Source: a virus. Taken from it: 64,000 nucleotides of DNA. Below the pieces are notes generated by a model. It saw nothing but the letters and a program-made list of their open reading frames with translations, made no database searches and was not told where the DNA came from. Shown here piece after piece: positions 22,611 to 64,000 of the stretch (position 1 is its first letter; every line of letters starts with the position of its first letter). The stretch lies in the IMG/VR virus record IMGVR_UViG_3300048080_000657; one strand, written 5' to 3'. A program made the position numbers and the translations under genes.

Positions 22611-23315
22611 ATGAACGACATCGTCAAGCCGATGACCCGCGACGGCTTGGTCGGCTGGGATGCCTACGGGCAGCTCTGGCTCTGGCGCGTGCAGGGCGAA
22701 AGACGGGAAGGGACCATCATCGCCGACGTTCGGGATAAGGTATGCTGCGTCTGCCGACGCGGCTGGGAGCTCAGCGCGGCGAGCATGGGCGACCAGTATT
22801 TCTGGTCGAATCGGGCCGAATGGGCGCATGAGACCTGCTACATCCGGCACTTGGCGCTCGACGAATTCGATTTCTGGTGTTCGGCCTTGGTCGGGGCCGG
22901 GTTCATCTTCGGACCGATGGACAATCCGAGGATGATCGCAGAGGGAGGCCCCGCCCTCGAGGCCCTTCCGAACGGATACTGGGGCCAGAAGGATCTCTGG
23001 GGTACCGGGATTCCCTGGTACCGGGCGCGGCTCCTCAAGAAGCTTGAGAACCGAGACAACGCCGCCCTCGGGCGCACCCTCAAGCTCGGTATGCGCAAGA
23101 GGGTCCACCATCTCGAGATCGAGGTCGGTTTCGGGCCCTACGATAGGACCCTCGCGGCCGAGCTTTTCAAGTCCGAGGATGTCACCAAGGAGATCGGCGA
23201 AGACCGCATGATGGTCCATGCTTGGGGACGGGACAAGGCCCGGGAGTACCTCAAGCACTTCGCGGAGATTCTCGGCGTGAAGAGCAGGGCCGCCGAGGCG
23301 GCGCTCACGAAATAG
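22611..23315 (+). CDS. cassette hypothetical protein (paralog of 36193..36858)
   Basis: MNDI..P.T.DGLVGWD...Q.WLW shared with the second copy. Confidence 0.8.
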   Translation: MNDIVKPMTRDGLVGWDAYGQLWLWRVQGERREGTIIADVRDKVCCVCRRGWELSAASMGDQYFWSNRAEWAHETCYIRHLALDEFDFWCSALVGAGFIFGPMDNPRMIAEGGPALEALPNGYWGQKDLWGTGIPWYRARLLKKLENRDNAALGRTLKLGMRKRVHHLEIEVGFGPYDRTLAAELFKSEDVTKEIGEDRMMVHAWGRDKAREYLKHFAEILGVKSRAAEAALTK

Positions 23316-23516
23316 GCAAAAGGTGAGGCAATGACACCGAAACAGTGGGCCAAAGAACTAGGTCTGGCACCGACGGCTTGGCAGACCATCGGAAATTACC
23401 AGTACGAGTTCGACGAGAACGGCTACACGGGATGGTACCGCTGCGTGGGCGGGAGGCTCGCGGATGGCCGGTGGCCCCAGTGGCGCATGGAATAGTCAAA
23501 AGGTGAGGAGCGCAAG

Positions 23517-23894
23517 ATGAGCGACTGCGTGTGCTGTTCCCAGGGATGCCCCAAGGACGGGGCGGTCGCCCACAAGGGCGAGCGGTGGTGCCAACAATGC
23601 CAGAAGGACGGATGCACCAAGCCCAGACTGGAAAGCAAGGAGATCAGAAAAATCGTGATCGAGGGGCCGCGAGGACGGGCGCTAGTTACTAGGCTATTCA
23701 AGGCGAAGTTTCGGGTGCTGTCCTTGAGCACGACGGATCCGGCGCGCATATTCGTATACGAGTTTGATGCTGAGGCGCTGAAGGACTACTTGGACGGAAA
23801 CGGAGAGCACGCGGAATATGTTCTGGCGATCGAGCCGCTGGACAAGCGAATGCTCGATCTGGTGGGTCGGCCCAATCCCGAAGGTTCGCATTAA
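23517..23894 (+). CDS. cassette hypothetical protein, Cys-rich N-terminus
   Basis: Bounded by sites 23485 and 23888. Confidence 0.65.
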   Translation: MSDCVCCSQGCPKDGAVAHKGERWCQQCQKDGCTKPRLESKEIRKIVIEGPRGRALVTRLFKAKFRVLSLSTTDPARIFVYEFDAEALKDYLDGNGEHAEYVLAIEPLDKRMLDLVGRPNPEGSH

Positions 23895-23919
23895 ATAGCC
23901 AAAAGGTGAGGAGGAAGAC

Positions 23920-24246
23920 ATGGGAATCCCAATCTCCGGCAGCAGCAATGTGCTCGCGCGGGCCCTCTCGGCGAGGAGGCATAGCCAGGGGAATCCGGAC
24001 CACGAAATCGTGGGATCCGGGGATCTCCAGCAACTTGGAGCCCAAGAAGAGGCGCTCCAGGCTGGCGGATTTGAAGTGGGCCGGCGGGACGTGTATCCCA
24101 CGGTGCCGAAAGGTGATGTCCTCCGCGCGCTCACCTTCCTCTACAAGAGACGCGTGAAGGGCTGGTGGAACATGGAGCACAGCTTGGTTCCGGTCGTCTG
24201 TAGTCAGGCCGTATTCGACAAGGCGCTCGGTAGGATCACCAAATAA
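23920..24246 (+). CDS. cassette hypothetical protein
   Basis: Bounded by sites 23888 and 24236. Confidence 0.65.
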   Translation: MGIPISGSSNVLARALSARRHSQGNPDHEIVGSGDLQQLGAQEEALQAGGFEVGRRDVYPTVPKGDVLRALTFLYKRRVKGWWNMEHSLVPVVCSQAVFDKALGRITK

Positions 24247-24265
24247 CCAAAAGGTGAGGTGAGCG

Positions 24266-24586
24266 ATGAAGACGGCCCAAGACCTCAAGGAACAAGGCGG
24301 TGGTCCTTGGTTGGGTATTGCACGGAGTTGGCTCCAGTCCCACAAGCGCAACGGCGATCGTGTCACCTGGGGCAGCTTAGAGGAGCTCCAACCTCCGATG
24401 ACGGTCCGGGACGTGGAGGATCTGGCGGCGCATGTCGCCGCAGCCGCACAGAATGAAGAGGCGAAGAAGTACGAGGGTCTTCTGCTGGCGGCGAAACTGG
24501 CGGTCGAGGGGCTCGAGAAGTTCTCAATGAATGAGGCTTGGCATCTTCGCACGGCGATCGAGAAAGTCGAAGGTCGCGCGAAATAA
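24266..24586 (+). CDS. cassette hypothetical protein
   Basis: Bounded by sites 24236 and 24576. Confidence 0.65.
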   Translation: MKTAQDLKEQGGGPWLGIARSWLQSHKRNGDRVTWGSLEELQPPMTVRDVEDLAAHVAAAAQNEEAKKYEGLLLAAKLAVEGLEKFSMNEAWHLRTAIEKVEGRAK

Positions 24587-25083
24587 CCCAAAGGTGAGGA
24601 ACCAGATGCCCAGCGAAATACAGTTCGAGCGGTGGGGAGAGGACCAGATCCGGGCGGGCCGCTTCGTCGGCAAGACGGTGAAGGAATTCTCGTTCGGCGA
24701 AGCCAATGACGGTCGCGACGAGCGCCTAACCATCCTGTTCACCGACAACACGGCGTTGGTGATCGAGAGCCGCGTCACGCAGAAGGAGAGCTGGCTGATC
24801 CTGGGGGCCCGCGGGGAGGATGGGGCCCCAATCCGGGTTCGAAAGGTGATCATCGAATAGCCCAAAGGTGAGGAAGCCATGAAGGTGGGCGAATGCGTTG
24901 CGTGGGGGCTCTTCAACTGTGAGACCCGCAAACTAGTGGGAGGGAGAGGTACGCCCTATATCTCCGGTACCAAGTTGGGCGTGGAGAACATGGCAGTCGG
25001 CCGAAATGAAGTTCCAGTGCGAGTGAGGATAGTTCCGATCCTAGATCGCAAAAGAGCCAGAAGGTGAGGCGCGTCGAGGACCC

Positions 25084-26121
25084 ATGAAAGTCGAGCTTGA
25101 CCAGCGGGTGAAGGACGGGTGGATCAATGCCACCAAGAGCGGGAATCTGACGCTATATAATTACTCGAACCGCTGCGTTTTCGAGAAGTGGTGGGACCCG
25201 TACACGATGGCCGCGCGCGGCTTGGTGCTGGACGAGATCGGGTGCATCCTCGCCCGCCCCTGGCCGAAGTTCTTCAACCTTGGGGAACGTCCAGACGACA
25301 AGCTCCCCGCCGAGACCCCGGAGCTATCCAAGAAGTACGACGGCTCCCTGCTGATCGTCTTCTTTGATCGCGTCAGGTGGCGGGCCGTGACCCGTGGCTG
25401 CTGGGAGAACGTCCAGACTCAATACGCGACGAAATGGCTGGAGCAGTACGGGGAAAGGCTCCAGCCCCAGTACACCTACCTTTTCGAGCTTGTAGCGCCC
25501 TGGAATCGAATCGTGGTGCATTACCCGAAGGACGACATGATCCTGCTCGGGATCGTCGCCACGGACACGGGCGAGGACTGGAGCTACGCGGAGACCAGGC
25601 AGGAGGCCCTCCGAATGGGCCTGACTCCAGTGGAGTTCGAAACCCGCCCAATCGACTCTCTGAATCTTGAGGATCCTGCCATCAAGAATGAGGAGGGATT
25701 CGTTGCGCGATTCAGCAACGGCTTCCGGGTCAAGCTGAAGTACCGCCAGTATCTCTACCTGCACAAGATTGTTACGGGCCTGTCGGTCAAGGGGATTTGG
25801 GAGATTCTCGCCAGCGGGAACCAGCCCGACTTCTCGAACGTGCCGGATGAGTTCATGGGCTGGTACACGAAGCAGCGGGAGAAGATCCAAGGCGCCTTCG
25901 ACCAGCTCAAGGCTCAGGCCATTGCCATATTCCAGGCCATCGGCAAGAAGGAAACGCGCAAGGACTACGCCCTCGAGTACACGAAACACGGCGAGGTCGC
26001 CGGGGCCCTGTTCCGGCTGCTCGACGGGAAAGATGTGGCCGACGTGCTCTGGAAGCGGTGCCGTCCGGAGATTCACGAGGTTTTCAAGGTGGACGAATCA
26101 AGTGAAGGACGCAAGCCATGA
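25084..26121 (+). CDS. T4 Rnl1-like RNA ligase
   Basis: ARGLV, ARPWPKFFN, motif I KKYDGS, EEGFV, KLKY. Confidence 0.88.
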   Translation: MKVELDQRVKDGWINATKSGNLTLYNYSNRCVFEKWWDPYTMAARGLVLDEIGCILARPWPKFFNLGERPDDKLPAETPELSKKYDGSLLIVFFDRVRWRAVTRGCWENVQTQYATKWLEQYGERLQPQYTYLFELVAPWNRIVVHYPKDDMILLGIVATDTGEDWSYAETRQEALRMGLTPVEFETRPIDSLNLEDPAIKNEEGFVARFSNGFRVKLKYRQYLYLHKIVTGLSVKGIWEILASGNQPDFSNVPDEFMGWYTKQREKIQGAFDQLKAQAIAIFQAIGKKETRKDYALEYTKHGEVAGALFRLLDGKDVADVLWKRCRPEIHEVFKVDESSEGRKP

Positions 26122-26846
26122 CCGACGTAACGCGTTTCCTCGATGCTCTCGAGGCGAAGGAGACTCCTGAGGTGTTCCAGCGGCTCTGCGCCATAGCGAA
26201 GGCTGGTGAGATGAAGTGGGGCATTACTCCTGGCGACTGGGGCGCGCCTGACCTATCGGGAGGCTGATTTGCCTTTTGCCTCGCGCGGGCGCGAGGACAG
26301 ACACCTAGGCTGATATCTCATGGAAACGGTGACGTCACTTATAGCGAGGGCAATTGCGGTACGGTCGCTGTGGAGGCCTCTATAATTCTTCGGGAAGTTT
26401 TCTATGACAGGGACTACACCGAGTGGTCCTTCTCAAACCGCGTCGAGATCGTCGCGGAATTGGCGGGAAGGGTACGCGAATCAGCGGATTCGAGCAAGAG
26501 GGCCAAGTGATCAAGGATGGCATGATCAGAGTCGGAAACGGCCCCGCGTCTTGGGGTTTCACGCGACAGAAGTTCACTGGTGATTCGTACCTCTGGAAAA
26601 CCGGAGATCGAATCATGGTCAGTTTCATCGTCGCCAAGGAGCAGGGAAAGGGGAACTTCTCCGCCTTGGTGAAGGCCATCGAAGCCGATGGCTTCAAGGT
26701 AGCGGTTCCGACGCCGCTTGGAAAGATGCCTTCGATCCTTCAGCGATGGGGATTCCGGCCGCACTACGAAGTAGAGCCGGATCTAGGCGAGACGGTTGAA
26801 GTTTGGTGTCGATAGACGACTGGCTAGAAACAGGAAAGGAGAAGCA

Positions 26847-27155
26847 ATGAACAAGTACAAGCCGTTTCCCGAGGACTCAACGATTGGCGACCTCTACCAT
26901 CCAGCTATGAAGCTGGAGGCTGTAGAGGAGGCGAAGGACTACTTCGAGCGCCTGGTCGAGTACGGCATGGCGCACGGCCAGAGCCGAGAGGAGGCCGAGA
27001 AGAACTTGGGCTACTTCTCCGGGTACTACGATGCGACGACGGCGCAGAGAGTTTTCAAGCTGTTCGAGTGCGCTCATCCGTTTTTCGGAACGACGCGGCA
27101 CGGTGCTGCCGAGGAACTTGAGGCTGGCAAGAGGATGGCGAAGTCTCGTAAGTAG
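26847..27155 (+). CDS. hypothetical protein
   Basis: SD AAAGGAG. Confidence 0.6.
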   Translation: MNKYKPFPEDSTIGDLYHPAMKLEAVEEAKDYFERLVEYGMAHGQSREEAEKNLGYFSGYYDATTAQRVFKLFECAHPFFGTTRHGAAEELEAGKRMAKSRK

Positions 27156-27161
27156 GGAATC

Positions 27162-27431
27162 ATGATGAAGAGGGGCCGAGGCAGTTCGCTGACACGGGCC
27201 TTTGATTTGATTATCGCACTACGTCGGCACCGTTACGGAATGGACATCAAGGAGATTCAGACCCATTTGGGCACGTGTCTACGCCAAACGTGGCGTTATC
27301 TCAGGATGCTGGAGCGCGCAGGGGTAAAGCTTGAATGGAAGAAGGAGCCGCTCTCCTATCCGGGGGTGTGGCATCGGCTTATCCGGCTCGTGAACGTGTG
27401 CGGGTACAAGCTGACCGAGTCGCCTAAGTGA
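27162..27431 (+). CDS. winged-HTH DNA-binding protein
   Basis: LTRAFDLIIAL....MDIKEI...LG...RQTWRYLRMLE. Confidence 0.65.
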   Translation: MMKRGRGSSLTRAFDLIIALRRHRYGMDIKEIQTHLGTCLRQTWRYLRMLERAGVKLEWKKEPLSYPGVWHRLIRLVNVCGYKLTESPK

Positions 27432-28728
27432 GGATTGACGTAATGAACGATCCAGAAGGCGGCTTCGCTTGTCCGTTGTGCGGCCTCGCGCACCCGCATA
27501 GGCACGGTGCCTCTAATGGGAAGCAGATTCGTCAACTCCACAAGGCCGCCGAGGTGACAAAGGAGCGCGGCTCGTGGAAAAGTGCATATCCATTGATTGT
27601 GGTCAACTGTCCAGAATGCGGTGGATGCTCGGCCTTCCATCGGTGCAATATCCGCGAGGACACTGACGGCTTCGCGGAGAACCAGAGGACTGGCAATAGA
27701 GTCATGAGATGCCCGCATTGCCGGAAGTTCATGGTTCTTCATCTGGTCGGCTGGAACCCAAAGGCCGGGATGGGTGTCGCGTAACTGACGAAACGTGAAT
27801 GGAGGGGATATGAGCGATCATAGCCATTGCTTCTGCCAGGCTATCACTGACGAGTACGACAAGTGTTGCTACTGCGGGGAGCCAAAGAAACGAGACAGGA
27901 AGCGATGCACGTCCCATTGCATGTGCCAGCGGTCTGAAAAGGATGGTCTAGCCTGGATCACTTGCTGTAAGTGTGGCGACTCAACCCGCCTCTTTACCGG
28001 GCCTGCGTAATCACGCTATAGCTCTGACGCATATGAGCAAAGACGAACCGATTAGCGAGGAGTATTTCGAGTATCGGCTCAACCACACGATGAAGGTTGG
28101 CGAATGGAGTGGGTTGAATGAAGCCGCCGGTCTCCTCATGAAGAAAGCCCTTGAGGCGTTTGAGCAGGGAGACAGGGAGGCACATCGGTACCGCAAACTC
28201 TCAAAGGAACTCAAGACGCTGGCAACCACGCGGCATCCTGGGCCGCCCAAATAGCTCATGCGCGGCTTAATTTTGAACGGTCTTGAGTGGCTCTGGGAAC
28301 TGCGCTCGCTCCCCGAGTGGGAGCGCCGCGGCGGTGTCGGCGAGGCCGCAAGCATGACGCGGTTCTACATCGGAGAGGCGTGGCTGTACTTCAAGGCAGC
28401 GTGGGACGTGTGGACGGAATAACCGGTACGTCTAAGGAGGGTAAGTGAGGATCGAAGTTGAGGCGCACCACATAATTTGCGGTGAGCGCTACAGTACATC
28501 ACGGTGTCCCATCGCCTTGGCCGTGACATCGAGGCTCCCGGCGGGCCGTTACGCCATCGTCGATCAAGAGAGCGTCTATGTGCGAGAGCGTGGCAGGCTT
28601 CCAGAAGAATTCGAGCAGGCGTTCCTGCTTCCAGAAGTGGCGCGAAAATTTGTAAAAAAGTACGACGCACAGGGCCCCGTTTGGCCATTCGCGTTCGAGA
28701 TGGACGACACAGGCGAAAGGAGACAGTC

Positions 28729-28980
28729 ATGAATAAGGCACTATGCTTGGCATTCCTCTGCTGGTTAGGTCTCTGCAGCGTTGGGTGTGACGAGGGAGGT
28801 AAAGGAGACGGGGCGCAGAAGAGCAGGACGACCCTCGGCGTGTTCTCGGGGGTGGACATCAGGACTATCGAGCACGACAAGCATTTGTTCGTAGTGGGGT
28901 ACACCGGGAGTACGGAGGGTGGGCTGTCGATCCTGCATCACCCGGCCTGCCCCTGCGGAACGCTCAAGCCAGAAAAGTGA
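28729..28980 (+). CDS. predicted secreted protein or lipoprotein
   Basis: Hydrophobic N-terminus ending SVG|C. Confidence 0.55.
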   Translation: MNKALCLAFLCWLGLCSVGCDEGGKGDGAQKSRTTLGVFSGVDIRTIEHDKHLFVVGYTGSTEGGLSILHHPACPCGTLKPEK

Positions 28981-29034
28981 GGCGCCTTTGTTGCGAGAGA
29001 CGCATAACTTGAATTCTGAGAAATGAGGTGAAGC

Positions 29035-29460
29035 GTGGGCAGAGAAGTCCGTAGAGTCCCGGCAGACTGGAAGCATCCGAAGAACGACGAGGGCCACTAC
29101 CTCCCCATGCACAAGCACTTCCCGTACAACGAGGAAAAAGTCCAGGAGGGCCTCAAGGACGGGTGGCTCAAAGACGAGCCCCCGAACTACGGTTGCGACG
29201 TCATGCCACAGTGGCCCGCATCCGAACGGACCCACCTCCAGATGTACGAGACCTGCTCCGAAGGGACGCCGATTTCCCCCGTGATGGAGACGCCCAAGAA
29301 GCTGGCGCGATGGCTGGCCGACAACGGCGCGTCAGCCAACGGCTCCTCGACGGCCTCCTACGAGGCATGGCTGGCGACGATCAAGCGAGGGTGGGCTCCC
29401 TCCATGGCTGGAAGGGCTGGCGAGATCACCAGCGGGGTCGAAGGATTGGCGAAGCTGTAG
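29035..29460 (+). CDS. conserved phage hypothetical protein
   Basis: MGREVRRVPADWKHP...QMYETCSEGTPISPV pattern. Confidence 0.65.
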   Translation: MGREVRRVPADWKHPKNDEGHYLPMHKHFPYNEEKVQEGLKDGWLKDEPPNYGCDVMPQWPASERTHLQMYETCSEGTPISPVMETPKKLARWLADNGASANGSSTASYEAWLATIKRGWAPSMAGRAGEITSGVEGLAKL

Positions 29461-29495
29461 TACGACTTGAAAGACGAACTACGGAGGATTAATCA

Positions 29496-29759
29496 ATGTT
29501 CGATGAGTTCAAGGACGAGTTCCTGAAGTTCGAGAGGGTCAAGGACAAGCTCAGCCAGCGCCCCGACCTCCACGCCTTCATCCTGCTGGACAAGCTTCTC
29601 CCTGGTACGGGAGATATGGTGGCGGGGGCGGATCATGACGAGATCTACCTATCGCCCGATCCGGAAGAACTGGCGAAGGTGGCGACGAAGGATCAACTTC
29701 GGGACCTCCACAGGTGCGGGGTCCGCGCGGACGGCAACGGCCTGTGTATGTTCGCGTAA
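29496..29759 (+). CDS. hypothetical protein
   Basis: SD GGAGG; 87 aa. Confidence 0.6.
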   Translation: MFDEFKDEFLKFERVKDKLSQRPDLHAFILLDKLLPGTGDMVAGADHDEIYLSPDPEELAKVATKDQLRDLHRCGVRADGNGLCMFA

Positions 29760-31250
29760 GACCAATTCATAGAAGGTGACGACGATGAAATGCTTGGACT
29801 GCGGCGGTGAGCCCGACAGCACGAAGCATCAGATGACGTGCGTGAAACTGCGCCCTGATAACCAAGAGATCACCCAGCTCCGCTCCGAGGTTGGGGGTTG
29901 GAAAGCCGCCTATGAGCGGTGCGTGAAGGACCTTGAGGATGCACAGAAGGAAACCCTGAAGGCCATGGAGGAGAGGGCTGTCACGTTTCTTCAGGTTGGT
30001 GAACTCAAGAAGGCGCTCTACGCCGAATGCAGGGCGCTCTCCTGCGGCCCTGAGTGTGAAGGTGGAGGCTACCGCAGTTGTCGCGGGTGCGACAATCGAG
30101 CGCGGGCGGCCTACGGTCTTGGCTGGGGTAGTGTCACCGAAAAGCCATTCTCAGACTCCGAGATAAAGGCGCGGCTGGCGCTGATCGAGAATGGCAAGTG
30201 CCCTGAGTGTGGTCAGAAAGTACACCTACACAACTGCACCGACAAGCAGAAGTGCGAAGCCTTGGTTCCGGTGGACGACCACATCGGCGGCTCCCTCTCC
30301 TGCGGGAAACCGCTCCCGTGCCCGTTGCACAGATGAACGCATCTATGACTCCTGAGGAAAGATTCTGTTCTGCGGAGAGGACCGGCCCGATCGGCTCCAT
30401 GAGTCACCGCGACTGGTGCGATCTTCACGGCACTTGGACGTTCGATTGTCTACTTCGTCTCAGGCTTACGTTCCGCCCGTTGCCTGACGACAAAAAGTAT
30501 CGTGACGCGCTAGAGCGGAAGCGCAATCGTTGAAGAGCTAGACGATGAAATACATCATCGCCAAGGGCAGCGCCAAGCTACCCTTATTCTGGAGCCGGGA
30601 TGGGTGGGCGTCGATCACCCATTGGGCCAGCCGCTACGAGACGAAGGAGGCCGCCGAGAAGGCCATCAAGATTCTTGGGCTTGAGAAGGAGCAAGAGATT
30701 CGGGTGGAGGTACGCGAATCGTGAAGACGATGAACGTGCAACAGGCATACAGCCGTCTCGGTGGCTTCCGATCCCTCGCCCAAGGGTGGGACAGCTATTC
30801 AGGGAAGCCGATCAGCCCCAAGGCAATCGACAAGGCGTATGAGTTGCTTGGACTGTTGCGGGACGGATGGACTCCGGTTCCCTGCTCTGATGGGTCTGTT
30901 CAGCTTGAGTCCCATGAAAACGGCGTGGACATCGAGATCAGGATTTCGGAGACTTAGAAGATGAAGTCCAAGAAGCGCGTCAAGTGCGCCTTCTGCGGAA
31001 AGCGCAGGAAGCCACTATGCAAGGGAGGAATCCGATGCCGACAGTGTTCGGATCGGATGTGTGGACGATGAGGTCGATGACCAGCGTCAAGTGGAAGCCG
31101 GGAGTCGGAGGCCCCGCGTGTGTCTGCTGCACGAAAGGACCGCCGCGTAAGTGGAAGCCGAAGCTGCGCCGGTTGGAGCGCAGGAAGGCCAAGCAGAGCC
31201 GCCATGAGGAGTCGTAGACCATGACTTAGACAAATGTTGACTGAAGCGAA

Positions 31251-31290
31251 ATAAAAAGGCCCCGGAGAGCACGGTCTTGATTCCGGGGCC
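31251..31290 (-). terminator. intrinsic terminator-like hairpin reading on the minus strand
   Basis: GGCCCCGGA/TCCGGGGCC 9-bp inverted repeat preceded on + by an A-tract. Confidence 0.5.
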
Positions 31291-32112
31291 GGTAAGGTGA
31301 AGCGAGGATTATACGAGGTTGCGCGAATGATTGCCAGCGTGGAGGCGAGCCTGTGAAGAAGCTGGTTGAGTTCAGAAAGCATCCTGACTGCGCCCCCGGA
31401 ACATGGTGGTGGATGAGCGACGGAACCGACCCGAGCGGGCCGACGATCTCCTGTCCGAAGTGCCAAGCCCTCCACGGCCTTGACCACAAGGTGGCCGCTG
31501 ACGGGGAACTTGACCCGTCCATCGTCTGTACCCGATGTGACTTCCACGAGTACGGGAAGCTGATGGGATGGACTTACGGGGAGAAGGATTTCAGGACCCA
31601 GGCTTCTTAGACGAATCGGAGGTAACACGTAATGATGACCCGCTCCTGCGCCCTCTGCGGCTCGGTGAAGACTGGGCTGGAGGCTGAGATAAAGGCCGGT
31701 GGCGAGGCTTTTTCTGTGGCACTGGATCACTGGTGGCGCGGGATGCACAAGCCCGGATGCAGGTATCTCGAATGGTCTGCCTCTGAGCGGACAGCCTACT
31801 TCATGGAACACGGGAGCCCACTCTCGTCGGTGGAGGAATAAGAACGATGGCGAGACGCTCTCGGAGAACTTAACGTGAAACGCTGTTGCGTTTGTAAATG
31901 CAAGCGGCCTGAGCCCGCATCCAAAGCCACGAAGGAGGGCTGGGCAGGATGTCGTGTTATGTCTCGCGGCCAGAAATCACATTGGTTCTGCCCGCTCCAT
32001 CGACGGGGGGATGAGGGGCGATCGTCTCCAGTAATTGAGCACGCGGAGGCAGTTGCGGATGGAGAAGTCCAGTGTGAGGTCGCTTAACGGACAAAGGTGA
32101 TCCAGACAGCCC

Positions 32113-32142
32113 TTGACCTTCCATGAGTAAACGCGGTATACT
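32113..32142 (+). promoter_or_regulatory. sigma70-type promoter with operator-like box, between two junction sites
   Basis: TTGACC-18-TATACT; GTAAAC-GCGG-TATAC. Confidence 0.75.
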
Positions 32143-32186
32143 ATCGGAGACAGATTACCAATCAATCAAAAGGTGAGGCTGAGCGC

Positions 32187-42444: not shown

Positions 42445-42519
42445 TCACGAATCAACTAAAAGGTGAGGACGGCACGGAAGAGTGCCAGTTCATGTACAGG
42501 CAGATAAAGGAGAACGCCC

Positions 42520-45367: not shown

Positions 45368-45405
45368 GCCGAGTTTCAGATCACCAATCCTCTGTTTAGT
45401 GAGCT

Positions 45406-54791: not shown

Positions 54792-55277
54792 ATGAAACCG
54801 ATCTACCAATTAACCAATTCCGATTGCATGAGAGCGTGCGTTGCTTCGATCTTCGAACTTCCGCTCAAACGGGTGCCGTTCTTCGGTGAATCCGCGATCA
54901 AGGATATCAAGAACCGCAACGCCATGACTCACAAGGAGCGCAGCCGGGCGGCGCTCCAGCAGGCTGACGACTTCGCCGCGTGGCTGAAGGCGCATGGGCT
55001 CGACGTCGAGTACATCTCCGATCCAGACTGGGCGATCAAGCGCGGCGCGAAGGCTGCGCGATTGCCTTGGGGGCTCTGCATCGGAGGTGGAAGATCGCCC
55101 CGCGGGCCGTGGGATCATGCGACCGTCTGGGACGCCGCCGACTGGACAAATCGGAAGATGGTCCACGATCCCCACCCCTCGGGCGCGGGCCTGAAAGGGA
55201 AGCCGCACACGTTCACTTGCTTTCTGCTCGTGGACCCTGCGAAGTTCCGACGGGCTCTGTGTGATGGAAAAGTCTGA
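54792..55277 (+). CDS. hypothetical protein, possible papain-like Cys/His fold
   Basis: Q..NSDCMRACVASI; WDHATV; MVHDP. Confidence 0.55.
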   Translation: MKPIYQLTNSDCMRACVASIFELPLKRVPFFGESAIKDIKNRNAMTHKERSRAALQQADDFAAWLKAHGLDVEYISDPDWAIKRGAKAARLPWGLCIGGGRSPRGPWDHATVWDAADWTNRKMVHDPHPSGAGLKGKPHTFTCFLLVDPAKFRRALCDGKV

Positions 55278-58034
55278 ATTGACGAAAGGTGAAGCGACGG
55301 ATGCTGGTCCTCACGCGGTGCCCCGGCTAGGCGCTGTAGCCCGTGGACGTGGGCGTGCCCCTCTCAGGTGTGCGCCTCGTTGGGCAAGCCGCAGGGCACC
55401 GCGTAGGGATCAGCACGAATCGGACGAAAGGTGCGTACTGTGCGTGAAAGGAGTACGGTGACCTATCCTGAGTTGATCTGCCTGAGCTACGGGCACGACT
55501 GGTATCGAGTCGCGACCTCGGACACTTGCGAGCCCGCGGCCTACGCGGGTACGACGCTGTGCAAGCGCTGCGGCACCGCGCTACCTAGGACGGACGAGGG
55601 CCTGTACGCGATACTGGAAGGGAGAAGCCCAACGTGCAGACCTTGAACAGTCGCCTTTCCAGTGCCGAGCTGTGCCGGCTGAATGGCTGGGGGCCGGGAA
55701 CCCGACTCGTCGGCGACGAAGGCTGCGGGCCGACCGTCATCGAGATCACGGCCGTCGGGCAGGTTTCCATCTTGGCGAGGATGATCTCCCACAAGGGAGA
55801 ACCAGCAGACGGTTTCGAGAGCCTCTGGGGACTGGACAACCGTGATTGGCAGCCGCACGAATCCGACATAAGATGATCCGCGTAAACCTAGACCATCAGG
55901 TAGCGGCCTTCCTGGAGATGCGAATGCTCGCGTGGGAGATTGGCATCGCGTCCTTTATCCGAGAAGGATTGAGCCGCGAGGAGGCCGTACGAAAGTTCGC
56001 CGAGGTCTGGCAGCGGGCATCGCTCGCGCGCGAGAGGCGCTGGAAACCTCACAGAACTGGCGAAAGGTGAGGCCTGTGAAGAAATACATCTGTTGGCTTT
56101 TCGGGCATGCCAAACCGGTCTATCACGAATCCGGCGCCTTCTGGTGGTGTCCCCGCTGCGATAGGGCACTCGGAATCAACCAAAGACTGTGGACGCCGGA
56201 GGCCATGATTGCGGACGCTAACCGAAGAAGGCTCGGAGAATACGACTCCGGAGATACTCACAATAGAGGCGACCCGTGAAGACCCTCCGAACGTTCGGGA
56301 CCATTCGGCCAGGCGGCCAAGAGGTCGGCCTACGCGAGGACCTCGACGGCCAAGAGCGACTCGCGTGCCTCTGGATTCAGGCGGTCTCGCGCAGGCAGGG
56401 GACTGTGGGGGCTTGGCTAAGCACCGCCGACGCGAAAGTCCTGATGGGTTGGCTGAGAGCGTTCCTGCAGAAGCACAGAAGAGGCGAAAGGTGATCTATG
56501 AAGCATCCGGGAGGATACCAGCCGGACCCTTCGAAGAATCCGGCACCCGTGCCGCCGGCGGTGGGCTCAGCGATCCAGCCGCCGCCCGTGCTCGGACTCA
56601 CCTGTGGCTGCGGAGGTGTCATGAGGGTCTATTGGAGACCCAACGGAACGCGAGGAATCCAGTGCGAACAATGTTATGAGGGCGGACGTGGTCGACCGCC
56701 AGCTCACGAAAGAAGCAAAAGGTGAGGTCGATGGAATACAGCGACTACTGGATCTACCCAGGCGAACGGCGCCCCGTCGTGGTCAAGGCCAAGACCGAAG
56801 AGGAGGCCGAAGAGCTTGTCAGGAAGAGCCCGGAGTACGACGGCTTCGGAAGCCGAGTGTATCGCGTCGAAACGTTCGGCGAGCTGTGCGCACGAGGCGA
56901 AGCGCCATAGGCGTGAAAGGTGAGCGAGATAGGTAAGATTGGAGGAGCATGGCCATGAATCCTACGGATCAGATGGTGGTCGAGATCTTCAAGGGGGAGG
57001 CCGATCAGAACCACGAGTCCCTATGGCGGGTCGATGTCCGGCACACGGCCGCGGAACTCGATGGCCAGGCCATCGAGCCCGAGGATCAGGACTACAATGT
57101 CCTCGCCTTCACACCGGCGGGAGCGATCGCGAAGGTGATGGGAATCCTCACCCATCCCTGGCAGGCGTCCGGGAAAAGCAAAGACAAGAACCCGCTTCGG
57201 AATGTCCTCCCCATGCGGATCGAGATTCGTTCTGTCCGATGGATCGCCCAGGTGCACAAGTAGATCACCAAAGGCATGAAAGGTGAGGTCCGATTCATGA
57301 CATCTGCGACAGCGGGCGAGGAGATTTGCGCGAACGACTATTGCAAGCATCGGTACGATGCCCACAATTTGAGCGAGGCGGGCTCTGGCTGCATGGCGAA
57401 GGACTGGAACGCGGCAGATGCGGATACCTTTTGTCGGTGCCGTAGATTCAAGAGGCACACTTCCAGCGAGAGAAGGTCCACCGATGCCTAAGTGTGGATT
57501 CAGGGAATGCCGTCGTCCAGCTACCGGCGATGGTTCGCTTCCGTGGTCATGCGAGGAGTGCGCCCAAGAGTTGAATCCGGAGATTGAACGCTTGGCAGAT
57601 CAGCTCAACAAGGCCATAGAAGATGACATCCAGAAGAATTAAGACCGACCTATCCAACGATCAGCGGATCACCAAAGGCTAGAAAGGTGAGCCGTAGCTT
57701 ATGACGCCGCAGGACTTCGACCCGAAACGCGACCTGAAGACCGAGTTGGACGAGGAAGGGCTCGGGCGCAGGGTAACGTGTATGGCCTGCTGTCAGGTGA
57801 TCTTCAATCTCGGGCCCAACCCTTCCGAGCCTGAGCGGCTGAAGGAGGGGAAGAACTTGGCCCTTCACCTGGAGCTTTTCCACAACATGAGAGCTTTCTA
57901 CGGGCGGTGCAGGGATGCGTCGTGCCGGAGGTTCCATCTTTCGGCATTCGAGAAAGGCAAACTCCCGCCGGAATTTGAGGGAGTTGGCAATCCGCCAGTG
58001 TAGGATCACCAAAGGTTAGTAAGGTGAGGGATTG

Positions 58035-58559
58035 ATGCAGGCTGAAGAGAAGGCTCAGCTCGGCGCGGCCGCCGCTGAGATTCTGAAGATGCTCCAGACC
58101 TGGGGCTTCGACACGAACCAGTCCTGTCGAACGCTTCTCGGCGTGGCTGCGGTGATCATCGCCGAGGGATGCAGGGGAGATAAGGTTTGTCTCGATGATA
58201 CTCTTGACCGTTTCTGCAATACGATCAGGGAAATGGCCGAGGATGCGTTCGGGAAGCCCAAGAACGTCACCGCCTCGAAGATGGCCTTTGATACCCACAC
58301 CAAAGAAAGCCGCGATCTTGTGGAGCGGATGCTCAAGGAAGAGGAGGAAGGCGGCTATACCCCGATGATGGTAAGATTCCCCGTCAAGAAGGGCTGCCGG
58401 GCCTGTTCGGGTCAGACGGGGATGTTCCGGACGAGCGTCGTCAGGAAGAGGCTCTCGGACCGTTCGGTGACCCTCTGGGCAATCGTCACGCTTTGCGAAC
58501 AGTGCCTTGGGAACGCGGATGCCAAGGCGAAGTTGCTCGGGATGCTCACGGAAGGATAG
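58035..58559 (+). CDS. cassette hypothetical protein
   Basis: Between sites 58006 and 58546; TAG lies in the site core. Confidence 0.65.
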   Translation: MQAEEKAQLGAAAAEILKMLQTWGFDTNQSCRTLLGVAAVIIAEGCRGDKVCLDDTLDRFCNTIREMAEDAFGKPKNVTASKMAFDTHTKESRDLVERMLKEEEEGGYTPMMVRFPVKKGCRACSGQTGMFRTSVVRKRLSDRSVTLWAIVTLCEQCLGNADAKAKLLGMLTEG

Positions 58560-58563
58560 AAAG

Positions 58564-59562
58564 GTGAGCAAGAAGATCCTACTCCTCCAGCTCGACGGGA
58601 AGATCCCCAACATCGCCCTCATGAGGATCGCGGCACACCACCGCGCCCTGGGCGACGCCGTCGAGTTCCGCTGGGGGAGGACGGTCGCCTCGGCGTCACC
58701 CGATCTCTTCGACCGGCCGGATCGGGTCTATGCCTCGCTCATCTTCGAGCGGACGAAGCCCGTCGCGGAGCGGCTCCTACAGACGTATCCGGACTCCGTG
58801 GTGGGCGGAACCGGCTGGGACGTGGCCTCCTCCCTCGAGGCGGCCGGCATCACGACGAAGGCACAGGACTACTCGGTCTATCCCGCGTGGCGCCAGTCCA
58901 TCGGCTTCACGCAACGGGGTTGCCGACTCAAGTGCCCATTCTGCGTAGTCCCTACAAAGGAAGGCCCGGTCCGAGAGGAACAGACGATTGCCGAACTCTG
59001 GCGCGGGGAGCCCTGGCCCCGGGAGATCATCCTCCTCGACAACGACTTCTTCGGACAGGCCTCCTGGCCCAAGCGGATCGAGGAGCTACGCGCCGGCCGT
59101 TTCAAGGTGAGCTTCAACCAAGGAATCAACGCCCGCTTCCTCACCGATGAGACCGCAGCCGCCGTCGCCGGCGTCGACTACCGGGACGACCAGATGAAGG
59201 ATCGCCGGATCTACACGGCATGGGACAACAGGAAGGACGAGGGGCGCCTGTTCGCCGGCCTCGAGGCGCTCGTGCGCCACGGGGTCAGGCCCGACGACAT
59301 CATGGTCTACATGCTCCTTGGGTACTGGCCATGGTCGGATCTCGAGGATTGGGAGCACCGGCGCCGCCGGCTGCGCGAGTTCGGCTGCCGGCCCTATCCG
59401 ATGCCCTACGAGAGGACCCCCCAGGCTGTTGGATTTCAACGGTGGGTGATCGGCGCGTATGATAAGAGGATCGGCTGGCCGGAATGGGAGGCGGCGGGCT
59501 ACCGGCCTGAGCGCGTGGGCCTGCATGCGGAAACGCCCCTGTTCGAGGTCATCGAAGAGTAG
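58564..59562 (+). CDS. radical SAM protein
   Basis: PNIALM; TQRGCRLKCPFCVVP (CxxxCxxC); LLDNDF; FNQG; GTG start supplied by site 58546. Confidence 0.85.
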   Translation: MSKKILLLQLDGKIPNIALMRIAAHHRALGDAVEFRWGRTVASASPDLFDRPDRVYASLIFERTKPVAERLLQTYPDSVVGGTGWDVASSLEAAGITTKAQDYSVYPAWRQSIGFTQRGCRLKCPFCVVPTKEGPVREEQTIAELWRGEPWPREIILLDNDFFGQASWPKRIEELRAGRFKVSFNQGINARFLTDETAAAVAGVDYRDDQMKDRRIYTAWDNRKDEGRLFAGLEALVRHGVRPDDIMVYMLLGYWPWSDLEDWEHRRRRLREFGCRPYPMPYERTPQAVGFQRWVIGAYDKRIGWPEWEAAGYRPERVGLHAETPLFEVIEE

Positions 59563-60017
59563 AAAGATGAGCATGAAGAAGCGCCAGCGCTTCAAGTGTC
59601 ACGGATGTGACCGTCGCAAGGCCTTGAAGTACCTTCACCATCATCGGGACGAGAGGCCCTATTGTGTCGATTGTTGGAAGAGGATGTACTAGCACACTCG
59701 AGCAGAAAGGTGAGGGTATGAAGATTCTGGCGATCGACAATCTCGTATTCAAGCTGCCGGACACGTTCAAGGGCAGCTTCAGTGATGCTCTTCGTGCTCT
59801 GGCTCGCTATCACGACGGAAGCCCAACAGCGATAAGGCAGAAGAAGCAGCCAGGCGGTCGGCTGACAAGAAAAACGTGGGATGCCTTTCTGAGTGTTGTC
59901 GACAAGGGTGGTTGTCTGGCCTGCATCGCGTCACTTCAGAAGTGGACGGGAAAGACGTGGCGGAAGTTCCCACTGGAGAAGGGATGGAAGAAGTTGAAGT
60001 CACGGAAGAGCTGAAAG

Positions 60018-60422
60018 ATGATCAAGAGACTTTCTGATAGGGTATGGCAGGCCGATGAGGCGGACGCCAGGAAATTGTGTGAGGGGCATTCCGAACGTTG
60101 GCTTACCGAAGGTTTTAAGGCGGTGCTTTGTCCGGCATTCAACGTCAGGATTCCTTATCACCCGCGGCTCGCGGCCATGATCCTGCCCGTATGGGATGAG
60201 ACGGACGCCCCGTCCGAGATGTTCGATTGCGCTGCCTATTTCCATAAGGCATTCGGCCCGACATTGGTTCATTGTCATGGAGGTTTGAACAGATCCTCAG
60301 CCTTCGCGGCCGCACTCCTTGTGGCCGACGGGATGTTTGTCGAGAAGGCTCTTGAATGTGTCAATGCCACACCCAATCCGGAGCTCCTTAGATCACTCCG
60401 GCGATGGGTGCAATCACGATAG
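60018..60422 (+). CDS. dual-specificity/Cys-phosphatase-like protein
   Basis: LVHCHGGLNRSS (HCxxGxxRS). Confidence 0.8.
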   Translation: MIKRLSDRVWQADEADARKLCEGHSERWLTEGFKAVLCPAFNVRIPYHPRLAAMILPVWDETDAPSEMFDCAAYFHKAFGPTLVHCHGGLNRSSAFAAALLVADGMFVEKALECVNATPNPELLRSLRRWVQSR

Positions 60423-60441
60423 ATCACCAAAGAGCACAAAG

Positions 60442-60921
60442 ATGAGTGCCCGAAGCTATAAGCTGCTTGATGGGACCAGCGTCCCGTTGAAGGTTCTCTC
60501 CAAGCGAGAGAAGGGCTTCATCCGCTCGCTTTGGGTGATGGCCTCTGATGGCGTCGACTACTTCGAGCTGTACCGCATCGCTTGCGGACCTAGGTCACCC
60601 GCTCTTCAAGGAAGATCGCGCGTAGACAAAGAGCTTGTCCAAACTCCCGTCTATCGGATAGCGAGAGACGTCGTAACCCGGACAGGGATTCGTAAAGGAC
60701 TGATTCTAGGCTCCGGCAAAGAGCCTGAAGTGGTTTCTTCATTGGCTCAGCTTCTGCAGCCGCTCAGCGTTCCACAGGCGGCGAGCCTGATCGGGATCTC
60801 TCGTATAGCTGTCTATAAGGCGATCCAGAAGGGCCACCTTCCAGTTGTGAAAGTAGGGAGCGTGCTGATCGTTGAACGAGGGGACGCCGAGGCTTACAAG
60901 AGATCCAGGCGGATCACATAA
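60442..60921 (+). CDS. protein with C-terminal excisionase/MerR-like HTH
   Basis: LSVPQAASLIGISRIAVYKAIQKGHLP..KVG. Confidence 0.75.
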   Translation: MSARSYKLLDGTSVPLKVLSKREKGFIRSLWVMASDGVDYFELYRIACGPRSPALQGRSRVDKELVQTPVYRIARDVVTRTGIRKGLILGSGKEPEVVSSLAQLLQPLSVPQAASLIGISRIAVYKAIQKGHLPVVKVGSVLIVERGDAEAYKRSRRIT

Positions 60922-61553
60922 GAGCGGAAAGGTGATGTGGGGAAGAACTTCCAGTGGGAGCGCCTCCAGAACATGAGAATTTATCTCGAGGAGAAAGGCC
61001 ACCGCTTCAGTGGGTTTCCGATGCAGTGCCAGAAGTGCGGCATCCTACTCGGGGTTCTTTCGGCTATGCTGGAGAAGGCGCCGGCCTGTGTGCCGCCGGC
61101 GCAGGATCACCAAAGGGCGGATCGGTGCGCGTATGACGCCAGAAGAGGAAAAGATCAGACGTGAGATGGCGGAGGTGAAAACCTTTACGCTTAATAGATG
61201 TCCGGGCTGCGGCGAGTTGCTTGGGTCTGGCTGGCAAACACGCAACGAAGCGATCCTTGAGTTCGCAAGGCACACACTTGGGTGTAAGGGCGTAAAAATG
61301 CTTGGAGCGCGCACCAAATCCTAGAAAGATGAGGAAAGGAAACAGCATGATGACGACGAATCAGGCGATCAAGGAAGCCACACGAGGCGTGCTCTCGAGC
61401 CGGGAATACCGCGCGCAGGTGATGGCAATCCTCGAAACTCGGCTTGAGACTGCGATCACCGAAGGTGACGACGAGGGGGCTTACGCTTATGCCGCAGGAA
61501 TCGAGGCTCTCAAGATCGAACCGCGCACCGAATCGTAGAAAGGTGATGTGGCC

Positions 61554-61811: not shown

Positions 61812-62271
61812 ACATGGATAGGCGCATCTTCATGGCCGCGACCGCGGCCGCCCTCGTGGGCACGCTTCCCGTGGAGGCGAAGTCCGGGCGGGAGTTCCTG
61901 GGCAGCGCGGAGATCACGGGCGCGAAGGCCTGGAGGGTGGACGGCGTCCCGGGGCGCTCGAGCTACGCCGTCAGGGAGCAGGACGGCAGGCAGTACGTCG
62001 ACGTCTACGGCGATCCCGGCGTGCGCGGCCGGGTGAGGACGACGATCCGGTACACCTAGCGGCTCGCGATGATTCTCCAGCGTCTGGGGCTCTTGGTGTG
62101 TGTCGCCATAGCCGGCCTCAATGCGTGGTTCCGGAAGGGGACAGGTGAGGCGGCGCTGGACACGCCCGAGGGGCGGTGGATCCTCTTCGGAGTCATAGTC
62201 GCGCTCGCAGTGCTGCTCTGGGGCTTGGGCCGCGAGCGCGGCTCACCGAAGACGTGAAAGGTGAGGCGAGT

Positions 62272-62499
62272 ATGATGTGCGACCAGTGCGGCTTGGGGAT
62301 GGCGAACGTGGGGCGCCAGATCAAGCCAGGCCATCCAGAGATCTGGATGGACGGATGGGTCTGCCCGAAGCGCCGCTGCCCAGGCTACGGGACCACCGAC
62401 CACCGGGATTCCGTGAGCCGTTGGCCTGGGATGACGCTGATGCCGGAGGCGCCGCTCCACGCGATGATCCGAGGAGCGCTGAAGTTCAGGGACGCGTAG
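62272..62499 (+). CDS. Zn-finger cassette protein (paralog of 61554..61811)
   Basis: See paralog. Confidence 0.75.
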   Translation: MMCDQCGLGMANVGRQIKPGHPEIWMDGWVCPKRRCPGYGTTDHRDSVSRWPGMTLMPEAPLHAMIRGALKFRDA

Positions 62500-63175
62500 A
62501 AGACGTAAAAGGTGAGGTCAGCAATTGGGCCACGTTGCGGGAAACCGTGATGCCGCCCCGTGAAGAGGGGCGGTGGTTGGCAGCGAACCCACACTGCCTA
62601 ACGTCGGACCTGCGGGCGAGACGCGAGATTAGTGCCGCCAAGCGGCCACGGTTTCCCGCAATAGGGCACTGAAGAGGTAAAAGGTGAGGTCATGAACGAT
62701 CCAAGGAAACAAAAGTGCGTGGAGTGCGAGAAGAAACTCCATGGGGGCCCGAGCTGCACCAAGCACGGTATGGCCGGATTGGCGACCTTGGCAGAGGCCA
62801 TCTTGAAGGTGGCCAGGAATACTCGCCGAAGAGGCAACTGGTGAGCACGATGGTTCATTACATGAACGTCATCACACCGGGCCCGCTTATCATCGTGCGG
62901 ACCCCCTACCCGCTACCCCGTTGGAGGCTCGTACTTAAAGCCCTGACGCCGGTCGTGCAATCGCATGGTTATAAGCAGAAGGACATCAGCGCGATCGAGG
63001 GTTTGCTCCCATATCCGGACGATCCATGGAGCCCCGAGGAGACACAGTTCGCTTCCCGGATCGAGAAGGCATTTGCGGGAGACCCCGAGGTTCTACCCCG
63101 CTTTTGGCTGTACGATTGGAAGGCCGGGGAGTTCGTGGTGGCGCGAGAGCCTCATAGAAGAGATAAAAGGTGAGG

Positions 63176-63204
63176 TTGACAATACTGCCCATTCACTGTA
63201 GGCT
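63176..63204 (+). promoter_or_regulatory. sigma70-type promoter of the hicBA cassette
   Basis: TTGACA-17-TAGGCT immediately after site 63152. Confidence 0.6.
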
Positions 63205-63340
63205 TACTCTTGCTAGAACAAGACGGAAGGAGACCCACATAAACTCTCTCGGAAGCCGCCTTCGTCCCGACGGCGTCTTGTTCTAGCAGACATTCGTCCG
63301 ACGGGCGGGCGGCCTCCAGGTGAGTTCAAGGAGACCGTGT

Positions 63341-63553
63341 ATGACGTATACCGTGGTTGTCGACTACGATTCCGAAGAGCGTGTCTTTAACGTTTCGGTT
63401 CCTGCGCTTCCCGGATGTTTCGCCTGGGGCAAGACCAAGAGCCAGGCGCTGAGCAGGATTAAGGAGGTCATGCGCACTTACTTGGATGCACTCGTCGATC
63501 TGGGGCAGTCCATACCAGAGGAGGTCGACGTCGAGCGGGTCACGATCTCGTGA
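63341..63553 (+). CDS. hicB: HicB-like antitoxin
   Basis: YTVVVDYD.E...FNVSVPALPGCFAWGKT..QAL..IKE. Confidence 0.85.
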   Translation: MTYTVVVDYDSEERVFNVSVPALPGCFAWGKTKSQALSRIKEVMRTYLDALVDLGQSIPEEVDVERVTIS

Positions 63554-63771
63554 AGCCAAACCCGTCACGTCCAAAGGAAGTCGAAGCGGTAGTCTTGCGC
63601 ATGCGTTTCGTATTCATCCGTGAAGGCAAAGGAGCCCACCGCATCCATGCCCATGAGGATGGCAGGATGACGTCGATATCTTTTCATCCTGGAGATGTGC
63701 CTGCCGGAACGCTCCGAAAGATCATCTCCCAAATAGGCCTGACGGTAGAAGACTTCAACGAGATGGTCTGA
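63550..63771 (+). CDS. hicA: HicA-like mRNA interferase toxin
   Basis: REGKGAHRI.AH.DGR..SISFH..DVPAGTLRKII.Q.GL. Confidence 0.82.
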   Translation: MKPNPSRPKEVEAVVLRMRFVFIREGKGAHRIHAHEDGRMTSISFHPGDVPAGTLRKIISQIGLTVEDFNEMV

Positions 63772-64000
63772 CATACCCATGAGTCACGAAAGAAATAAAA
63801 GGTGAGGAATCTTCTCGCGTTCGTCATGCTGCGGTGTCGCTGCTGCGGAATGAAGATCCCTCACAAAGGGAGCTATGCTGAGATGTTGCGTGAGGCGATC
63901 CGGCGTGGATGGGTATTGCGTGGCCAGGATTACCTCTGTGAACGCTGCAAGCACTCGCCTAAGGTATAAAAGATGAATGGGGCCCAGCGCCGCCCCAAGC

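Follow-up and report, generated by a model that had tools for sequence, protein, structure and literature searches.

The DNA analysed here is a stretch of 64,000 nucleotides (nt), referred to below as the window, from a sediment metagenome phage (IMG/VR record IMGVR_UViG_3300048080_000657), and the subject is an array of gene cassettes in which a short site with a variable centre recurs about 100 times. The window is part of a 216,145-bp Joint Genome Institute (JGI) contig that carries the window's own proteins, its genes all lie on the + strand, and its GC content is about 0.59. Phage-like products encoded in it include a DNA-polymerase exonuclease subunit, PAPS-reductase-like proteins, a Mom-like protein, a DNA methylase, ThyX, two RNA ligases, an SNF2 helicase, a radical-SAM-like protein and a HerA-like ATPase with a LAGLIDADG intein. 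As the contigs of helicase relatives measure 350-430 kb, the phage is a large ('jumbo') phage. Deposited phages gave no megablast match to the window, and no tRNA was found in it.

Architecture of the recurrent site

A scan of the whole window with a weight matrix in which the core was masked yielded 101 sites on the + strand; its two matches on the - strand are palindromic variants. The consensus spans 24 nt and consists of a left arm, (ga)TCACnAAw, six variable bases, termed the core, and a right arm, AAAGGTGAGG. The main cassette array, on the + strand at 20939-63978, contains 98 junction sites, and three outlying sites on the same strand (8338-13761; cores at 8346, 12742 and 13746) lie among larger genes. 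The right arm is a Shine-Dalgarno-like block, and a start codon usually follows 1-20 nt 3' of the site. The stop codon of the preceding gene is found at at least nine offsets in or around the core, namely in the left arm, in four registers of the core, or as the TGA inside GGTGAGG, which is used as a stop at 54 sites.

The TCAC of the left arm (-8 to -5) mirrors the GTGA of the right arm (+10 to +13), each being located 5-8 nt from the core boundary, and the dyad axis coincides with the core centre. The corresponding hairpin has a stem of 4-5 bp and a predicted energy of -5.1 kcal/mol if the n of the left arm is C, or -2.5 kcal/mol if it is G, and its stability is not above that of shuffled sequences. 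An RNA or DNA hairpin as the main feature was thus rejected, the weak stems being no better than shuffles except in two palindromic variants. These two near-perfect palindromes, at 22252-22283 and 45377-45404 (TCACCAAT ... ATTGGTGA), score on both strands, and the former folds at -12.6 kcal/mol. Rfam covariance models gave no match at gathering thresholds over the whole window.

Uncommon right-arm variants are partly clustered (position +9, z = 4.7), and three right arms of the ATTG type lie together at 21558-22264. Two stretches of the array, 25100-32150 (7 kb, after an RNA ligase gene) and 52100-55400, contain no sites or only weak ones.

Similarity of neighbouring cores

A sequence-only reading of this DNA had described four chains of cores that change stepwise from site to site. 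All four are present as written, the coordinates of that reading marking where each left arm begins, 8 nt ahead of the core. The first, at 23305-25069, comprises seven sites from TAGGCA to GAGCCA, with steps of 1, 1, 1, 1, 1 and 2 changes; the second, at 41558-44375, leads from CTACTG to CCCCTA and ends just before a gene that is called gene X here; the third, at 56902-60937, leads from GGCGTG to GAGCGG around the radical-SAM-like gene; and the fourth, at 62243-63978, from GACGTG to GGTATA (all on the + strand).

The stepwise similarity between neighbouring cores is confirmed as real and strong. The Hamming distance between adjacent cores averages 2.39 of six positions, while shuffled orders give 3.95 +/- 0.11 (z = -13.9, none of 5000 as low), and for the range 23305-63976 alone the means are 2.22 and 3.89, respectively (0 of 20000). 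The decay with array rank that had been proposed as a further check is likewise present, with mean distances of 3.02, 3.39, 3.53 and 3.62 at lags of 2-5 and the shuffled level reached by lag 10. The result is stable at site-score thresholds of 10, 20 and 25. Among the 100 adjacent pairs, 33 differ at one position, 28 at two, 17 at three, 12 at four, nine at five and one at all six, and none is identical, while about 4.8 identical pairs would be expected from the match rates per position (P about 0.008).

The similarity is restricted to positions -1 to +5 and is absent at all other variable positions from -45 to +49, among them the n at -4 and the variable arm ends. Even in the 33 neighbouring pairs with cores that are one change apart, the variable positions of arms and flanks remain at background identity (0.370 versus 0.354), and, with the exception of one recent paralog pair, uninterrupted identity in register between any two sites does not exceed 18 nt. 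Copying of whole sites was rejected, as neighbours do not share the variable arm positions. Coding constraint was rejected as well: the stop-codon register is itself mildly autocorrelated (0.47 versus 0.32), but the effect is intact after stratification by stop-codon offset, with z = -12.3 retained when cores are shuffled within register classes and with a distance of 2.60 versus 4.13 for adjacent sites of unlike register.

The statement that the genes between the sites are not paralogs holds at the level of BLASTP. The 94 array proteins include five real paralog pairs, of which a single one, 61554/62272 (76% identical amino acids), is formed by near neighbours. The members of the other four, 22611/36193, 32596/46169, 41098/46810 and 41945/49059, are 17-34 ranks apart, and the two copies are flanked on both sides by unrelated cores, each of which resembles the local neighbours of that copy. 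An example is the cassette at 41098-41313 (+ strand) and its paralog at 46810-47025, which share 72% of their amino acids. The youngest of these pairs is formed by a small cassette at 41945-42073 (+ strand) and a near-identical copy at 49059-49166, for which the homology begins in the right arm of one site and ends in that of the following site, and the flanking cores follow the local neighbourhood. The downstream cores of the two copies differ at 2/6 positions, versus about 3% over the surrounding ~110 nt, and the differing bases are those of the local neighbours. The pair at 22611-23315 and 36193-36858 encodes proteins of 220-234 amino acids of unknown function, which are 47% identical and lie 13.5 kb apart, again with unrelated cores.

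One site is present as a relic and a duplicate (47615-47854, + strand). A sequence of 19 nt, composed of the left arm, CTATTG and AAAGG, occurs at 47615-47633 and again at 47836-47854; in the first copy the right arm is destroyed. The two copies bracket an insert of 221 nt that holds the site at 47668 (core CTAATG) and one cassette.

Core order in related phages

Searches with two conserved window genes led to four close relatives, the contigs L128, L131, L132 and L133. L128 has a length of 8.3 kb and contains 24 sites, L132 and L133 stem from the same JGI sample as L128, and L131 is a Logan assembly of another run. Collinearity was assessed by local alignment of the list of cores of each contig with that of the window. 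The score of L128 was 46.5, compared to 12.2 +/- 2.7 for shuffled lists (0 of 300 as high) and 7.0 for the reversed list; for L132 it was 25.9 (shuffled 10.6 +/- 2.6, 0 of 500 as high; reversed 5.3), for L133 23.2 (shuffled 12.2 +/- 3.0, 3 of 1000 as high; reversed 8.2), and for L131 18.7 (shuffled 13.1 +/- 2.6, 14 of 500 as high; reversed 8.4). A null that keeps the autocorrelation, in which segments of the window were compared with the rest of the window, reached a maximum of 6.6.

The 24 cores of L128, of which 12 match exactly, are collinear with those of the window between 20947 and 49393, and include TAGCCA, TAACAC and TAGCCC in the order of the first chain, despite the fact that only two of the 24 genes are homologous to genes of the window (60% and 87% identical amino acids). 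The eight cores of L132 match the window sites 32575, 34567, 40420, 40869, 41922, 43785, 44360 and 46150, six of them exactly and two with one difference. The cores of L131 match four consecutive window sites, 43607-44360, and reproduce the order of the second chain (CTACTA, CCACTA, CCATCA, CCCCTA). A second region, 56481-61115, is matched by L133, in which GACGTG, GGCATG, GATTAG, GGATAG, GAGCGG and GGGCGG follow the order of the third chain. Core autocorrelation is also present within L128 itself (2.39 versus 3.91, z = -6.0).

The conservation of cores does not extend to their surroundings. The flanks of exactly matching cores are at chance identity between genomes, the arm-variable positions and flanks of all core-matched site pairs are at background identity, and the cassettes behind identical cores are unrelated (Smith-Waterman z of -0.9 to 2.3, compared to 83 for an ortholog control). 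The description of the cores as a positional barcode is thus borne out, as dispersed paralogs carry local cores and as relatives share the core order despite unrelated genes. It follows from the same two observations that the core belongs to the position and the arms to the cassette.

Two genes, gene X and the radical-SAM-like gene, served as anchors. Gene X, at 44384-45367 (+ strand), is among the few cassettes in common with relatives; it is 60% identical in amino acids to its homolog in L128 and is also present in L131 and L132; the window version is about 100 amino acids longer than that of L128. The cassette at 47385-47681 (+ strand) is orthologous to L128:6992-7258 (87% identical amino acids, 89.5% identical nt), the upstream core is GCGATG in both genomes, and the homology starts at the site and includes the cassette's own left arm. 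The radical-SAM-like gene at 58579-59562 (+ strand), with 93% identical amino acids in L133, anchors the second region.

Where L128, L132 or L133 has a single core, the window often has a cluster of 2-4 similar ones. Between CAACCA and gene X, L128 has no additional site, L132 has five and the window has about thirty, and the order is nested. At both anchors a core has changed sides: CCCCTA is located upstream of gene X in the window and downstream of it in a relative, and GGATAG, together with an identical left arm, is located upstream of the radical-SAM-like gene in the window and downstream of it in a relative. Both cases fit cassettes that were once flanked by twin sites.

The breakpoints of one difference could be localized precisely. 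L128 and L132 differ by an indel of 2.1 kb with five cassettes, and the L128 sequence equals the left L132 site through CAACCA and a further AA, followed by the right L132 site from GGTGAGG onwards, so that both ends lie in right arms. This indel is not an assembly artefact, because the run shared by the two L132 sites is only 8-9 nt long. The assemblies have independent support: a sequencing run of another study contains a junction of the L128 type behind gene X, and Logan contigs, an independent assembly of the probable source run, are identical to the window across several sites. In another strain a core with one difference at 55421 is followed by different DNA. Many of the short 'joints', 21-27 nt long, were not counted as excision products, being motif-only matches from other phages.

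Cassettes are also found in different places in different genomes. The same cassette (about 80% identical amino acids) is located behind GCGCGG in L132 (1235-1472) and behind TGAATT in the window (21766-22041), places that are about 19 kb apart in window terms. L128 has two sites, with the cores CGGAGA and CGGCGA, where the window has the gap at 25100-32150. A homing-endonuclease-like cassette with HNH_3 and a resolvase-type helix-turn-helix (45406-45963, + strand) is located behind a degenerate site with the core CCTCTG and the right arm TTTAGTGAGC, and a related strain that is more abundant in the source run does not have the 953 nt with this HNH endonuclease gene (44991-45943).

Beyond these relatives, a scan of IMG/VR with the motif and with a DUF4419 protein returned chance single matches or nothing. 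Among the matches listed, a motif scan of metagenomes also gave mostly chance singles, and true arrays were confined to L029, L035, L036, L051, L077 and L082, which have GC contents of 0.52-0.61 and cores that are not collinear with those of the window. L036 shows core autocorrelation (z = -3.0), and identical neighbouring cores with differing arms are found in L036 and L082, with three identical cores in a row in L036. No sites were found in the helicase relatives L005-L007 (72-82% identity) or in L129 and L130, whose relative of gene X is 35% identical, and of the two contigs with relatives of the radical-SAM-like gene (79-84% identity), L134 has no site and L135 has one. The array is therefore specific for a clade, since contigs with related helicase, radical-SAM-like or gene X proteins have no site or one.

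Several features of the conserved genes themselves should be noted. The 3' end of the radical-SAM-like gene encodes a left arm (L135:2316-2345; L133:2396-2419; window 59549-59572), and a full site is present after this left arm even in the relative without any other site; there are hints that some junction sites began as gene ends. In L134, a serine recombinase with Resolvase and Recombinase domains (7823-8548) lies directly behind the radical-SAM-like gene, and an Acb2/Tad1-like gene follows 2 kb beyond it; the window has small cassettes at that place. At 997-3834, the window encodes the HerA/DUF87-like ATPase of 945 amino acids, which is split by a LAGLIDADG intein-like domain, and inteins also occur in several helicase relatives (P0004, P0010, P0014).

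Origin of the graded cores and comparison with known systems

The explanation that is tentatively preferred here, somewhat short of even confidence, is that the core of a junction is duplicated whenever the array gains a cassette there, and that the copies then drift apart by point changes. In this account the sites are the junctions of a phage gene-cassette array, and each cassette comes with arms of its own, the right arm carrying the ribosome-binding sequence for the next gene and the left arm ending the preceding gene, while the central 6-7 nt between the arms remain with the position. A gain by recombination or insertion at a junction would place that core on both sides of the newcomer, and the two copies would diverge by point changes. 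Neighbouring cores would be close relatives, with a difference that grows with rank, because core copies are made at each gain and diverge afterwards, and related phages would keep the core order despite the exchange of cassettes because cores stay with the position. The smooth decay over about 10 ranks is as expected from descent along the array and supports duplication of the core. The autocorrelation with its restriction to the core, the collinear cores of genomes with unrelated cassettes and the location of breakpoints in the arms are observations; what we infer concerns this duplication at the moment of gain, the enzyme or pathway involved, and the direction, gain or loss, of each difference.

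The sequence-only reading had offered duplication of the target site at each insertion as one of two options. This option is compatible with the data, and is preferred, in view of the clusters of window cores that correspond to single cores of L128 or L133, the identical cores in L036 and L082, and the duplication of 19 nt; within the window, no fresh insertion between identical cores was found. It had also been claimed that the array records its own assembly history, which is plausible, and is unproven because gains and losses have not yet been polarised.

Several observations weigh against the preferred explanation. The five-cassette indel between L128 and L132 joins the sites CAACCA and CCATTA, the cores of which differ at 3/6 positions, and a core is therefore not duplicated or consumed in every gain or loss. 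With identical flanking cores in 0 of the 100 window pairs, no fresh duplication has been caught, and duplication is thus tenable only if identical flanks are also assumed to be unstable or disfavoured by selection. A test for chimeric cores revealed no asymmetry between prefixes and suffixes (11 versus 10) and a total of 21 versus 17.6 +/- 2.0 in column-permuted cores, so that this signature of crossovers within the core was rejected as a marginal excess only. The divergence of matched cores, about 10%, is close to the 10.5% nt divergence of a conserved ortholog, a comparison in which the matching itself minimises differences. No responsible enzyme was found among the 60 open reading frames (ORFs) of the window that were scanned, and the relatives are all short metagenomic contigs, three of them from one sample.

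A second explanation, considered unlikely, is an address system of heterospecific sites, in which a dimeric site-specific recombinase binds the arms and exchanges DNA across a core of 6-7 nt that has to match. Distinct cores would stop about 100 direct repeats from recombining with one another and would permit only in-register exchange between related genomes, as with spacer variants of lox and FRT. The equal distance of TCAC and GTGA from the core edges, the sharp end of linkage at these edges within and between genomes, the avoidance of identical neighbours together with the limit of 18 consecutive identical nt between sites (one recent paralog pair excepted), and the occurrence of the same ordered core pairs around unrelated cassettes in different genomes would all be in accord with such a system. 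However, no integrase, resolvase or transposase is present among the 60 ORFs scanned in the 64-kb window of the 216-kb contig, homologous cassettes are found at unrelated cores, L036 has three identical cores in a row, and the indel joins cores that differ at 3/6 positions. In addition, the conservation of the right arm is already accounted for by its ribosome-binding role, and the system would explain the need for unlike cores, but not by itself the likeness of neighbours. The other option of the sequence-only reading, a homology-sensing recombinase that inserts cassettes only at near-matching cores, is not supported as stated, in view of the indel with unlike cores, the homologous cassettes at unrelated cores and the lack of a recombinase gene among the ORFs scanned. 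The indel and the moved cassettes may reflect another pathway, and they lower the case for placing the sites among those with a homology-dependent centre. With a putative recombinase, the array might, at a similarly low probability, represent a natural coordinate system of about 100 heterospecific sites in fixed core order, in which co-infecting relatives swap or stack genes slot by slot with the register kept and new slots arise by splitting an address, a phage counterpart of engineered recombinase-mediated cassette exchange.

Two further explanations appear less probable still, both to the same degree. According to the first, local short-patch conversion, i.e. concerted evolution by template switching or gene conversion primed by the arms, would copy a core into its neighbour. 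The fall of similarity with rank, the downstream cores of the 41945/49059 pair, which differ at 2/6 positions in surroundings that differ at about 3% and carry bases of the local neighbours, and the clustering of some rare right-arm variants at +9 would be in line with this process. It would, however, be expected to produce identical neighbours often, whereas the 100 pairs include none, and to co-convert the arm positions -4, +14 and +15, at which no neighbour similarity exists, and ongoing homogenisation would blur a core order that is common to diverged genomes. According to the second, the cores are functional and selected region by region, either because they are read by a family of regulators or because they provide graded tuning of translation or processing. 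Cores are indeed kept across genomes while both flanking cassettes change, they lie directly 5' of the ribosome-binding sequence, and they show regional 'flavours'. Nevertheless, the change along the array is gradual and does not form discrete classes, moved cassettes work behind unrelated cores, and matched cores have diverged about as much as a conserved orthologous gene, which makes extra constraint unnecessary; moreover, a hairpin with the core as its loop is weak (-5.1 kcal/mol at best, not above shuffles) and Rfam contains no match.

Cryptic tandem gene duplication, by which neighbours would be old paralogs that have diverged past recognition while their cores changed more slowly, is very improbable: one neighbouring pair, 61554/62272, would be an example, but BLASTP of the 94 proteins revealed no other adjacent pair, neighbouring sites have no residual similarity in flanks or arm-variable positions, dispersed paralogs do not share cores, and the same cores flank unrelated genes in other genomes. 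Chance, stop-codon coding constraint or an assembly artefact can be set aside almost entirely, because, in spite of the upstream stop codon in many cores and its autocorrelated register, the stratified shuffle retains z = -12.3, contigs of different samples and assemblers show the pattern as well, the independent assembly equals the window across several sites, and the 8-9 nt shared by the L132 indel sites are too short to mislead an assembler.

With regard to the mosaic genomes of phages, there has been a long debate whether short conserved 'linker' sequences at gene boundaries guide exchange. In the present case about 100 boundaries are explicit and each carries a tag, and the tags are ordered, graded between neighbours and common to relatives with mostly different genes. 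If the tags are inherited by duplication, they would provide a readable record of the growth of a hyperplastic region, and it could then be dated when accessory genes, many probably with roles in host takeover or counter-defence, were gained or lost. If the tags gate recombination, they would constitute a natural multi-site cassette-exchange system that could be used as a set of orthogonal sites. Either way, they offer a testable handle on how large phages achieve a fast turnover of small genes without scrambling their genomes.

The attC sites at the cassette boundaries of integrons measure about 57-141 bp and contain a GTTRRRY core site as well as R''/L'' and L'/R' box pairs, and the tyrosine integrase IntI, attI and Pc lie next to the array. 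The phage array resembles them in its length and uniform orientation, its mostly promoterless single-gene cassettes with bounds that are imperfect inverted repeats, the turnover of gene content between relatives, and the fact that some ORFs run into the site. In contrast to attC, the site TCACnAAw-N6-AAAGGTGAGG has only 24 nt and no GTTRRRY, and whereas attC travels with its cassette, the central core of the phage site stays with the position. Phage_integrase had no match among the 60 window ORFs, and neither IntI nor attI was seen in the window.

The core sites of tyrosine recombinases consist of an asymmetric centre of 6-8 bp between inverted binding elements, and the identity of the centre decides which sites recombine; with heterospecific lox, FRT or dif variants, a gene between two unlike sites can be exchanged only with a gene between the same pair. 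The inverted TCAC and GTGA around a 6-nt core are symmetric in the same way, but the arms match only in these four bases and at least one natural indel joins unlike cores. No array of this kind, with about 100 graded spacer variants, is known to us from nature.

Target-site duplication by transposases and the acquisition of spacers by CRISPR arrays both leave a resident short sequence on each side of the newcomer, and an array that grows in this way has related sequences at successive junctions, as is the case here. Transposon-like units with terminal inverted repeats of their own lie, when newly inserted, between identical short direct repeats. Cassettes in L036 and L082 lie between identical cores with different arms, and 19 nt are duplicated at 47615/47836; among the 100 window pairs no flanking cores are identical. 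Duplications made by transposons, in contrast, do not serve again as the target of the next insertion in a regular array, and CRISPR copies the whole repeat, whereas only the central 6-7 nt are common to neighbours here; Cas1 and Cas2 were not seen in the window.

In Cluster K mycobacteriophages, the SAS/ESAS elements are short conserved sequences just upstream of many start codons, and some of them follow an imperfect inverted repeat whose spacer is variable (Pope et al. 2011, PMC3203893). They are similar to the present motif in their proximity to start codons and differ in being reported for a subset of genes and in their translational or regulatory context.

The closest described system is the promoter-early stem-loop (PeSL) of T4-type phages, a short conserved motif for expression that separates small non-essential genes in the hyperplastic regions of these large lytic phages (Arbiol et al. 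2010, PMC2839356; Comeau et al. 2014, PMC4122927); nothing closer was found in the literature searched. For the PeSL, indels and replacements between related phages are reported to end at the motifs, mini-circles are regarded as possible, and exchange between nearby motifs is proposed to cause shuffling (PMC2839356, PMC4122927). Likewise, cassette indels and replacements end at the motif in the present array, as exemplified by the L128/L132 indel, the start of homology at 47385 and the unrelated cassettes between matched sites. Unlike the PeSL, which is a longer unit of promoter and terminator, the site has 24 nt and comprises a ribosome-binding sequence and often the preceding stop codon; a stem of 4-5 bp without a T-run does not correspond to the terminator stem-loop that follows a sigma-70-like early promoter in the PeSL, a comparison made without a promoter scan. 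A position-specific variable centre, a series graded between neighbours and an order common to several genomes are not mentioned in the portions of PMC2839356 and PMC4122927 on which this comparison is based. The new element of the phage array is thus its graded, position-specific centre, the order of which is conserved across genomes.

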